Positions 18,282-20,547 of a stretch of DNA of 64,000 bases are shown here, in pieces. Numbering within the stretch: the stretch's first letter is position 1; each line of letters begins with the position of its first letter. Below the pieces are notes generated by a model. The model saw only the letters and a program-made list of their open reading frames with translations. It was not told where the DNA came from and made no database searches. This stretch comes from Candidatus Latescibacterota bacterium. GTDB lineage: Bacteria > Latescibacterota > UBA2968 > GCA-2709665. Position numbers and translations under genes: made by a program. The stretch covers positions 4,640,001 to 4,704,000 of the forward strand of contig OZ244744.1 in assembly GCA_965219455.1 (NCBI GenBank), in the 5' to 3' direction.

Positions 18282-18363
18282 GATCGGTGCTTGCAAACCG
18301 TGAAACTTATGGCGCAATGCCACATTCTCGATGAACCAGGATAAGGCTAACAGTCCGTTGATA

Positions 18364-20311
18364 GTGCGCCGTGAAAAGGCGCGGATCTTCAGTGGGTGAG
18401 AGTCCCACCCGACAAATGTTGCTGCAGTCGGAAGCAACCGGAGCGGTGAGGGAGGTAACGACATCGCCGAAGCCTCCGGTGTAAAGGGTCGCGCGGCGAC
18501 CCCGCGAATATGCAGGCCGTAACGTGAGTGAACGCTGAGCAAGCCTCGAAAACTGCAATGCGGGCGCCGACCCGATTATCAGCCGGGGAAGGCCGCCGTC
18601 GTTGGGGAAAAGAGAGCAACGGGCGCACCCAACGGTCCCGCCGGGGTATTGGCGACGGCATGCATAGAAGGAGATCCGACGCAACACGGGAAGCCCCCGG
18701 CGGCGGAATGTGGACACCAACCGGCAGCCCGCGAGGGCCAGGCCGGGCCGTGGGGGGTGGCGGAGAGGCCCGTAGTACCCGTGATGCCGGGTAATGCCGG
18801 TGGAGGTAAGGGGCCTTGGTTCAAGGGCAACGTCAAAGGAGCGAGAGCCGGGAGATTGGTGTGAGCCTAAGACCTCCAGACAAGGTTCGGAAGTTGCAGA
18901 GGACGTTGTATGCCAAAGCGAAGGAATCGCCCGATTACCGATTCTACGCACTGTATGACAAAGTGTATCGCGAGGACATCCTGCACTATGCCTACCGTTG
19001 TTGCAAGGCCAACGGCGGTGCGGCGGGCGTGGATGGAGAGCGCTTCGAGGATATCGAGTCATATGGACGAGAGCGGTGGTTGGGCGAACTGTCGGAAGCC
19101 GTGAGAAGCAAATCGTATCGGGCGTCTCCGATCCGCCGGGAGTATATCCCCAAGCCGAACGGTAAGCAAAGACCGCTTGGCATCCCGACGATCAAGGACC
19201 GGATGGTGCAAACGGCTGCGATGCTGGTATTGGAGCCGATCTTTGAAGCGGACCTGCCAGAACAGCAGTATGCCTACCGTCCGAAGCGGAGCGCGCACGA
19301 CGCCATCAGAGCCGTACACACCCTGGTGAACAAGGGCCATACACAGGTGATCGACGCCGACTTGAGCGGCTACTTCGACACGATCCCGCACGCCGAGTTG
19401 ATGAAATCGGTGGCGCGTCGCATCTCGGACGGCAGAATACTGCGTCTGATCAAGATGTGGCTGACCGCGCCGATTGAAGAGACCGACAAGCGGGGACGGA
19501 AACGTCGGAGCACGCCGAACAAGGATGAGGGAAGGGGGACACCGCAAGGCGCCCCCATCTCCCCATTGCTGGCGAACCTGTATATGCGTCGATTCATTTT
19601 GGGATGGCAGCTTCTGGGACATCAGCAACGCCTGAAGGCTCATATTGTCAACTACGCGGACGATTTTGTGATCTGCTGTCGCGGCAGCGCAGAAGAAGCG
19701 ATGCGCGTGATGCGATCCATCATGAAAGCGCTCAAGTTGACGGTCAATGAGCAGAAGACGGGCGTATGCACGCTTCCAGAAGGACGATTTGACTTTCTGG
19801 GTTACACCATCGGACGTTGCTACTCGCCAACGACGGGCAGAGCCTACATCGGGACGCGCCCGTCAAAGAAGGCCATCCGGCATATATGCGAGGCCATCAG
19901 CGAGGCCACAGCGCGACGATGGGCGCTGAAGGACACAGAGAAACAGATCGCCCTGCTGAACCGAAAGCTTCTGGGTTGGGGCAACTATTTCTCTCTGGGA
20001 CCGGTCAGCAAAGCCTACCGGAGTGTGGACCTCCACACGCGGTACCGGCTCCGAGGGTGGTTGCGTGCCAAGCACAAGATCCCGGGAAAGGGGACGACAC
20101 GCTTCCCAAACGAGGCCCTCTACAAGACGCTGGGCCTGGTCCGGCTGGAAGTGCGGCCACGCAACTTTCCGTGGGCGAACGCATGAATCCTTGTCCGAGA
20201 GCCGGATGCGGGAAATCCGCACGTCCGGTTCGATGAGCGGGATGTGGAAACGGAGCACGGAGCGGCTATAAATAGGCCCTCCTAAACCACCGCGCCACAT
20301 CTCGACTCTAC
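18364..20311 (+). ncRNA. Group II intron (complete, RT-encoding)
   Basis: 5' GTGCG; domain V GAGCCGGATGCGGGAAATCCGCACGTCCGGTTC near 20200; 3' end CTCGACTCTAC; EBS1 TATCAG (18577-82) pairs with exon TTGATA. Confidence 0.93.
18861..20186 (+). CDS. ltrA: Group II intron reverse transcriptase/maturase (no En domain)
   Basis: RPLGIPTIKDR, GTPQG, YADD, FDFLG and an X domain; GTG start after GGGAG. Confidence 0.95.
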   Translation: MSLRPPDKVRKLQRTLYAKAKESPDYRFYALYDKVYREDILHYAYRCCKANGGAAGVDGERFEDIESYGRERWLGELSEAVRSKSYRASPIRREYIPKPNGKQRPLGIPTIKDRMVQTAAMLVLEPIFEADLPEQQYAYRPKRSAHDAIRAVHTLVNKGHTQVIDADLSGYFDTIPHAELMKSVARRISDGRILRLIKMWLTAPIEETDKRGRKRRSTPNKDEGRGTPQGAPISPLLANLYMRRFILGWQLLGHQQRLKAHIVNYADDFVICCRGSAEEAMRVMRSIMKALKLTVNEQKTGVCTLPEGRFDFLGYTIGRCYSPTTGRAYIGTRPSKKAIRHICEAISEATARRWALKDTEKQIALLNRKLLGWGNYFSLGPVSKAYRSVDLHTRYRLRGWLRAKHKIPGKGTTRFPNEALYKTLGLVRLEVRPRNFPWANA

Positions 20312-20547
20312 AAGTCGCTCTGCAGGCGAGGTCGGGTCATTGTGGCCGAAGACAAGGCGCACGACCGCGTCGAATCGGGGGATTCGGGAAGGGAGTGCAA
20401 CGCAGTAATTCGGCCACAAGGGCCGGACGCAGCCCGGATGGACTTTTTCAACGGGCTGCTAAGGGTGCAGGCTAAGCTGAGGAAGGTTTCTGCACATCAG
20501 TTTACACGATCATTCACGCTTCGGCAATTTCCGTACATTCGCGGAAA

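Follow-up and report, generated by a model that had tools for sequence, protein, structure and literature searches.

The window analysed here, a 64,000-nt stretch of DNA, corresponds to positions 4,640,001–4,704,000 of one 5.84-Mb contig from a Candidatus Latescibacterota bacterium. It contains a group II intron that interrupts one terminal inverted repeat of a miniature inverted-repeat transposable element (MITE), between a gene of the phosphotransferase (APH) family and a gene of the GrpB family. The features of the locus, in window coordinates, are the following:

18347..18350, no strand: CTAA, left copy of a 4-bp target-site duplication (direct reading); A18350 is position −14 of the intron target.
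18351..18363, plus strand: CAGTCCGTTGATA, the outer 13 nt of the left inverted repeat of the MITE, which form the 5′ exon of the intron (direct reading, copy comparison).
18364..20311, plus strand: group II intron of 1948 nt, GTGCG...CTAC (direct reading, Rfam, BLAST copies).
18390..18527, plus strand: segment of intron domain 1, Rfam RF02003 group-II-D1D4-4 (107.9 bits, cut-off 49, full model 1–138).
18816..20186, plus strand: open reading frame (ORF) of the intron-encoded protein, a reverse transcriptase (RT)/maturase (RVT_1, GIIM, TIGR04416, YADD).
20197..20311, plus strand: domains 5 and 6 (D5, D6), Rfam RF00029 (49.2 bits, cut-off 40), with D5 at 20199–20231.
20312..20458, plus strand: remaining 147 nt of the MITE, the 3′ exon of the intron, starting AAGTCGC (direct reading, BLAST).
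20441..20458, within the 3′ exon: right inverted repeat of the MITE, GACTTTTTCAACGGGCTG (direct reading).
20459..20462, no strand: CTAA, right copy of the duplication (direct reading).
17247..18281, plus strand (that of the intron): upstream gene, APH family (domain search).
20548..21057, plus strand (that of the intron): downstream gene, GrpB family (domain search).

The intron starts with GTGCGCC at 18364 and ends with CTCTAC at 20311, in agreement with the GUGYG and AY boundaries of group II introns. Its ORF, carried in domain 4, remains open across 458 codons, including a YADD motif; in the corresponding 456-aa frame, RVT_1 was matched at residues 111–332 (6.5e-36) and GIIM at residues 355–422 (3.7e-12), and the protein scored 352.6 bits on NCBIfam TIGR04416 (cut-off 300). 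Since homologues start to align at residues 14–17, translation likely starts at GTG 18861, which is preceded by GGGAGA. No endonuclease (D/En, HNH) domain was found after domain X in this protein, RVT_1 and GIIM being the only domains matched. On sequence grounds, the segment 18364–20311 is confirmed as a complete, endonuclease-less group II intron with an intact RT/maturase ORF.

Joining 18351–18363 to 20312–20458 produced a 160-bp element with CTAA on each side and inverted ends of 18 bp (16 of 18 positions matching). This reconstruction, first made in an initial annotation of the window, was borne out by direct reading and by the other copies of the element. A BLAST search with the rejoined MITE, which had been suggested there as a check, returned 36 other full-length copies in the genome (77–97% identity) plus many shorter derivatives, so that the lack of further copies that would have spoken against its reading of the locus was not observed. 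A perfect 4-bp duplication, mostly of the form YTAR, flanks 26 of these 36 copies (CTAA 10, TTAA 7, TTAT 3, ATAG 3, CTAT 2, CTAG 1). The rejoined junction, CAGTCCGTTGATA followed by AAGTCGC, is identical to the left end seen most often among copies without an insertion. Among the 36, left ends read TTGATA in 18 (one being the relic described below) and TTGAAA in 13, while right ends read TTGAAA in 32. A census of MITE ends allowing up to two mismatches counted 150 of them in the genome, pairing into elements of 50–324 bp. The 147-nt MITE body was present in all 14 other genomes of the genus and in none of 26 genomes outside it; each of those 14 genomes contained 24–151 copies of the end sequence, for which the 26 outside genomes gave a single match, with one mismatch. 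Judged by its inverted ends, its 4-bp duplication and its small size, the host element is a real multicopy non-coding MITE. Throughout the genome, the flanks of the MITE often read CC-TTAA-GG or CC-CTAA-GG around the duplication; such flanks suggest a preference for a palindromic target wider than 4 bp. An autonomous partner with the CAGYCCGTTGAAAAAGTC ends of the MITE was sought in this genome, and no inverted pair of such ends lay 400–5000 bp apart; the MITE may thus already be immobile.

The pairing between the exon-binding sites (EBS) of the intron and the intron-binding sites (IBS) of its exons was analysed by aligning the 15 larger intron copies of the genome and then 55 5′ junctions drawn from this genome, from the genus and from a single metagenome contig. 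In the window, these elements are:

18577..18583, plus strand: EBS1, TATCAGC, in the 9-nt terminal loop of the hairpin CCCG...CGGG (covariation).
18552..18556, plus strand: EBS2, ACTGC, in a single-stranded segment immediately upstream of the EBS1 hairpin (covariation).
18649, plus strand: EBS3, the T between GGGGTA and TGG, which pairs with A20312 at +1 (covariation).
18351..18354: IBS2, CAGT.
18355..18356: linker, CC.
18357..18363: IBS1, GTTGATA.
20312: IBS3, A.

The initial annotation had paired the loop TATCAG (18577–18582) with the exon sequence TTGATA. This pairing holds, and C18583 extends it to 7 bp with GTTGATA (18357–18363), six of them Watson-Crick and one G-U; an alifold consensus also placed EBS1 within a hairpin loop. 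Further, ACUG of EBS2 pairs with CAGT at −13 to −10 (4 bp), leaving a 2-nt linker, and EBS3 and IBS3 form a single U-A pair. EBS2, EBS1 and EBS3 are therefore complementary to MITE positions 1–4, 7–13 and 14, respectively. The left end had been taken as the target because the opposite repeat reads TTGAAA at the equivalent place; this was correct, and the right end (CAGCCCGTTGAAA) was found to mismatch EBS2 as well as EBS1.

The three pairings covary among intron subfamilies. For EBS1 and the 5′ exon, the combinations found included TATCAGC with GYTGATA, CATGGAT with ATCCATG (subfamily B), TTTCAAT with GTTGAAA, TTGCGAA with TTCGCAA, and TGAATTA with TAATTCA. For EBS3, covariation in this genome was three-way (T with A at +1, A with T, and C with G). 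For EBS2 and IBS2, ACUG occurs with CAGU, AAGGU with ACCUU, and AAGGC with GCCU; plasmid-borne relatives showed GGAC with GUCC and GGUC with GACC. Over 36 unique intron/site combinations, EBS1 formed a mean of 5.86 of 7 pairs, compared with 3.76 ± 0.24 in shuffled combinations (reached in 0 of 2000 shuffles), and EBS2, the weakest of the three pairings, a mean of 3.42 of 5 pairs, compared with 3.06 ± 0.11 (reached in 2 of 2000), shuffle statistics that are inflated by the relatedness of the sequences. The genome contains 214 unoccupied sites in which GYTGATA is followed by A; 22 of these also have CAGT at −13 to −10, and 20 of the 22 continue as the MITE. The sequences that satisfy all three pairings in this genome are thus nearly all MITE left ends (at least 20 of 22).

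The same MITE position was found occupied elsewhere. In a sister species (G013), a 98%-identical intron (33 differences in 1948 nt) lies between CAGTCCGTTGATA and AAGTTGC, that is, at the identical position of the MITE. Its host is a different MITE copy, with other flanks and a TTAG duplication in place of the CTAA of the window, and it has a G at −14, which gives the full 5-bp EBS2 pairing. Between the two host MITEs, 14 of 160 positions are different, a divergence above that of the introns (Fisher p = 4.5e-6). Since the hosts are far more diverged than the introns they carry, the two insertions are separate events, younger than the MITE copies. Within the genome under study, the MITE copy at genome positions 2267562–2267722 (minus strand) consists of CAGTCCGTTGATA, 21 nt of the intron 5′ end, and the MITE from about position 34. 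These 21 nt (20 of 21 identical to the intron 5′ end) directly follow TTGATA and replace some 20 nt of the MITE. An imperfect 8-nt direct repeat, AGGCG(C/A)GG, is present at intron positions 14–21 and at MITE positions 26–33, and the relic is probably the product of a later deletion between these repeats. Two other fragments consisting of the intron 5′ end only, at 4369791 (98 nt) and 4060221 (62 nt), both lie within other repeat ends.

A scan of metagenome sequences for the junction returned five loci (L028–L032), three of which were clear. In these three (L030, L031 and L032), the junction runs from CAG, C or G, and CCGTTGAAA to GTGCGCCGTGAAAAGG, the same position of a TTGAAA-type end, with flanks that all differ. 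L030, which could be read further, has an EBS1 loop TTTCAAT matching the TTGAAA-type end, and a T as EBS3. L029 contains merely 13 nt of intron at a contig end and was counted as unclear. L028 was rejected as a chance match, and so was a junction-like match in G002, which lies within coding sequence. When genome contigs were scanned with a 16-nt junction pattern, 17 loci among the matches listed passed a very loose end match, none of them with an intron 5′ end. The available sequences support the MITE left-end position as a recurrent target, struck independently several times.

The intron family is represented in this genome by 11 full-length copies (including that of the window), three ORF-less copies and four fragments. 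ORFs are intact in the window and G013 copies; that of the copy at genome position 2846937 is truncated to 276 codons by a 5-nt insertion. The ORF-less copies are mini-introns of 730–758 nt (genome 2676127–2676856, 2868085–2868842 and 5573551–5574307) that retain domains 1–3 and 5–6 and have EBS loops of their own; similar ones were found in G003, G004, G006, G007 and G009. Four intron copies (2846937, 5573551, 2676127 and 1946949) lie in the heptamer runs of a promoter-like repeat present in 41 copies, which consists of a TTGACA-like box, about 15 nt, CGCTAACCGGTTTTRGCTGA, and runs of the heptamer GCTGAYN, often followed by a ribosome-binding site and ATG. It was found at 2846908 and, for example, at 1731481, 2366530 and 2876058, and in the window near 48033 (genome 4688033, minus strand).

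We consider it very probable that the window intron is an endonuclease-less IIB-type mobile group II intron that retrohomed into the left terminal inverted repeat of the MITE, 13 nt from its outer end. As judged from the literature on RmInt1 and RmInt2, the excised lariat with its bound protein would reverse-splice into the target strand and, in the absence of an endonuclease, the nascent DNA strand at a replication fork would prime cDNA synthesis. The MITE end would thereby serve as a multicopy homing site in non-coding DNA. That the intron homes to a multicopy MITE end was also the proposal of the initial annotation, and the G013 copy, the relic, the metagenome junctions and the covariation speak for it. 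Its further statement, that the insertion immobilises the MITE, is pure inference.

Besides the relatedness that inflates the shuffle statistics, several observations weigh against homing to the MITE. In each of the two genomes, this one and that of G013, 22 fully matching left ends are empty and one is occupied, this genome having the relic in addition, and such low occupancy indicates that homing is inefficient, recent or no longer active. The nearest relative in the genome, the 99%-identical copy at 2846937, lies in the unrelated promoter-like repeat, and its IBS1 (GCTGATA) pairs perfectly over 7 bp, better than that of the MITE with its one wobble, although it has no contiguous EBS2 match. 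Three sponge metatranscriptome runs contained intron fragments and one low-depth piece spanning the 5′ junction, and no exon-exon joint skipping 18364–20311 was present among their contigs, a result that speaks neither for nor against splicing. Finally, when the orientation of the 15 larger copies was compared with GC skew, eight were as predicted for insertion using the lagging-strand template and seven were opposite, in replichores that are themselves uncertain; this tally gives no support to the priming route proposed above. The cumulative GC-skew curve reaches its lowest point at 3.53 Mb and peaks locally near 5.4 Mb; the replication arms would then measure about 1.9 and 3.9 Mb, unless the chromosome is rearranged or atypical.

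These points could be taken to mean that the window insertion was a one-off ectopic retrotransposition, that the real home of the intron lies elsewhere, for example in the GCTGATA promoter-like repeats, and that the MITE end was struck through a chance resemblance to IBS1. The better-paired copy at 2846937, the 93 GCTGATAA sites present in the genome and the emptiness of most MITE ends would all agree with this. We regard it as improbable nonetheless, as three separate MITE-end events are known for this EBS set (window, relic and G013), against one confirmed elsewhere and one fragment in G005; only the MITE ends add a match to EBS2; and metagenome relatives occupy this repeat at the identical position, one of them with a retuned EBS1. 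The initial annotation had held that intron copies in unrelated sequence would refute homing to the MITE. Such copies do exist, at 2846937 and in the other subfamilies with their other targets, but this demand was judged too strict because each subfamily has its own EBS and its own target.

A single ancestral insertion, after which the MITE and intron were moved or inherited as a composite, would make the window, G013 and relic insertions one event. In its favour, the junction is identical in all three and the duplications conform to the usual YTAR pattern. We give this very little credence: the host MITEs have diverged far more than the introns (14/160 versus 33/1948), the flanks and duplications differ (CTAA versus TTAG), nothing in G013 matches the sequence upstream of the window copy, and an inner left repeat displaced by 1.9 kb should hinder transposase binding. 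That the intron arrived by homing and is now a dead relic, immobile and without current function, is less easily dismissed, if still rather unlikely. It would accord with the low occupancy, with the many fragments and ORF-less copies in the genome and with RNA-library contigs that lack the exon-exon joint, but the ORF is open with its YADD motif, D5, D6 and the EBS loops are conserved, the G013 copy is intact too, and a divergence of 1.7% between species suggests recent activity. Retrohoming into the MITE end remains, in our view, the best explanation of the locus.

The position within the repeat end recurs beyond this MITE. Among the 59 non-redundant junctions, 29 fall precisely 13 nt into a repeat end that belongs to one of three families (this MITE, 6 junctions; CCTTGATTCGnnn, 14; CCTGAAnnATTCA, 9). 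A strict YTAR was present at −17 to −14 in 16 of the 59, and in two at most at any other offset. In the second and third families, 3′ exons are conserved across species while upstream flanks differ, indicating that these introns lie inside repeats. Ends of the third family, here CCTGACTAATTCA and CCCGAATAATTCA, belong to a 1681-bp insertion sequence of this genome (1312542–1314222) that has a DDE_Tnp_1_4 transposase and a CTAA duplication; such ends also house sister introns in G001, G011 and G013, again 13 nt inside. Sister lineages in the genus have changed their EBS sequences and lie equally far (13 nt) inside at least two further families of repeat ends with YTAR-like flanks. Subfamily B follows a dispersed 28-nt motif, tTtATCCTGtccATCCTGTnnATCCATG, with seven of its 30 exact copies occupied. 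Copies of this motif are clustered in one 28-kb region (genome 567–595 kb) and also scattered; its interpretation as a gene start was rejected, since 27 of 30 opposite-strand frames are shorter than 100 aa.

It is conceivable, and is offered here only tentatively, that the whole intron clade of the genus is a dedicated parasite of transposon termini, whose protein and EBS2 read a feature of YTAR-duplicating elements while EBS1 is retuned to whichever repeat is abundant, and which acts as a heritable brake on transposons. The feature recognized may be the TA of the duplication at −16/−15 together with the first bases of the repeat. This would explain why 29 of 59 junctions lie 13 nt inside three unrelated families (this MITE, the CCTTGATTCG... 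repeat and the CCTGAAnnATTCA ends). If so, the intron would separate the inner, transposase-binding part of the repeat from its tip.

As for the surroundings of the intron, both neighbouring genes are on its strand, and read-through transcription could supply the precursor RNA. Scanning 17900–20800 for promoters and terminators yielded nothing beyond shuffled expectation. In the search for an orthologous empty site, the APH flank was found in 10 of the 14 other genomes of the genus (75–83% identity), and none of these 10 loci had the GrpB flank or the MITE nearby. In the metatranscriptomes, a contig of run X13 bridges 17900–18375 without differences and may derive from the source sample. A contig of run X2, with a loose end at window position 18364, joins an intron 3′ end to a 5′ end, as would a tandem copy or an intron circle. 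In the DNA of G004 (G004:C52:27843-28345), two introns stand head to tail, the 3′ end of the first abutting the 5′ end of the second.

Bacterial group II introns persist by means of harmless, repeated homing sites, and the independent insertions and compensatory EBS changes described above point to specialisation for such sites. With all of EBS1, EBS2 and EBS3 readable, the subfamilies form a natural retargeting series in which target shifts can be studied. The locus also offers a testable example of a selfish element that disables another one in its DNA, beyond repair by splicing. For the annotation of repeats, it is a warning that 2-kb inserts conceal MITE copies.

Comparison with known introns placed that of the window closest to a group of plasmid-borne relatives. 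RT identity was 63% with Planctomyces sp. SH-PL62, 61% with Frigoriglobus and 50% with Nitrobacter hamburgensis X14; further relatives were found on plasmids of Microvirga, Bradyrhizobium and Paraburkholderia. They share the ribozyme type (D1–D3 72–76% identical over 452 nt in the best matches) and the placement of EBS1, EBS2 and EBS3, but none of the six inspected lies in a YTAR-flanked repeat end. Class C (IIC) introns insert after terminator hairpins or attC sites; they resemble the window intron in lacking an endonuclease and in using a repeated, structured non-coding target, and the best PDB sequence matches of its RT are IIC RTs (GsI-IIC, 1e-52). Class C is nevertheless unlikely, because its short IBS1, lack of EBS2, insertion after a hairpin and small D1 were all absent: here EBS1 forms 7 bp, EBS2 is present, D1–D3 occupy some 450 nt before the ORF, and the insertion lies inside the 5′ arm of the repeat. 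In a passage of PMC3552965, Ni.ha.I1 and Ni.ha.I2 are assigned to class F/group g3; the N. hamburgensis X14 plasmid copy may be one of these.

Passages of PMC5894124 place RmInt1 in ISRm2011-2, an IS630-family element, and propose that it limits the spread of its host element and uses the lagging-strand template. It is likewise an endonuclease-less intron of a multicopy insertion sequence, but its copy in pSymA lies inside the transposase gene, flanked by the HTH and DDE_3 halves, and not in a terminal repeat. By BLASTP, the window RT and the RmInt1 protein from pSymA are 30% identical over 385 aa, and RmInt1 matches Rfam RF01999 (D1D4-2), not RF02003 (D1D4-4) as the window intron does. Class D (IIB3; RmInt1 and RmInt2) was ruled out by pairwise comparison, on this RT identity and the different D1 family. 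No Sinorhizobium meliloti plasmid was among 69 DNA-level matches to the intron.

The closest precedent is RmInt2, an endonuclease-less class D intron described in parts of PMC4615759 and PMC5894124 as residing in the inverted repeats of ISRm17, so that the behaviour itself is already known. According to the same passages, RmInt2 has a linker of two positions (−8, −9), tolerates an EBS2 pairing of 4 bp, forms a U-A EBS3/IBS3 pair and occurs in head-to-tail copies. The window intron resembles it in being an endonuclease-less IIB-type intron whose natural targets are terminal inverted repeats of transposable elements, in its 7-nt IBS1, two-position linker, 4-bp EBS2/IBS2 and U-A EBS3/IBS3, and in the head-to-tail arrangement, seen here in G004 DNA and in one RNA-library contig. 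Literature searches on group II introns homing to MITEs found none, the passages returned from PMC9769881 and PMC4853749 mentioning both element types unlinked, and RmInt2, from one rhizobial strain, is the sole intron described as using transposon inverted repeats. Besides its class, two differences set the present case apart. Here the left end alone matches, the right end differing in both IBS1 and IBS2, so that the doubling of sites available to RmInt2 does not apply; and the target, a non-autonomous MITE of 160 bp, has no transposase mRNA that splicing could restore. What is new is thus that an unrelated endonuclease-less lineage, other than class D, occupies a non-autonomous MITE.

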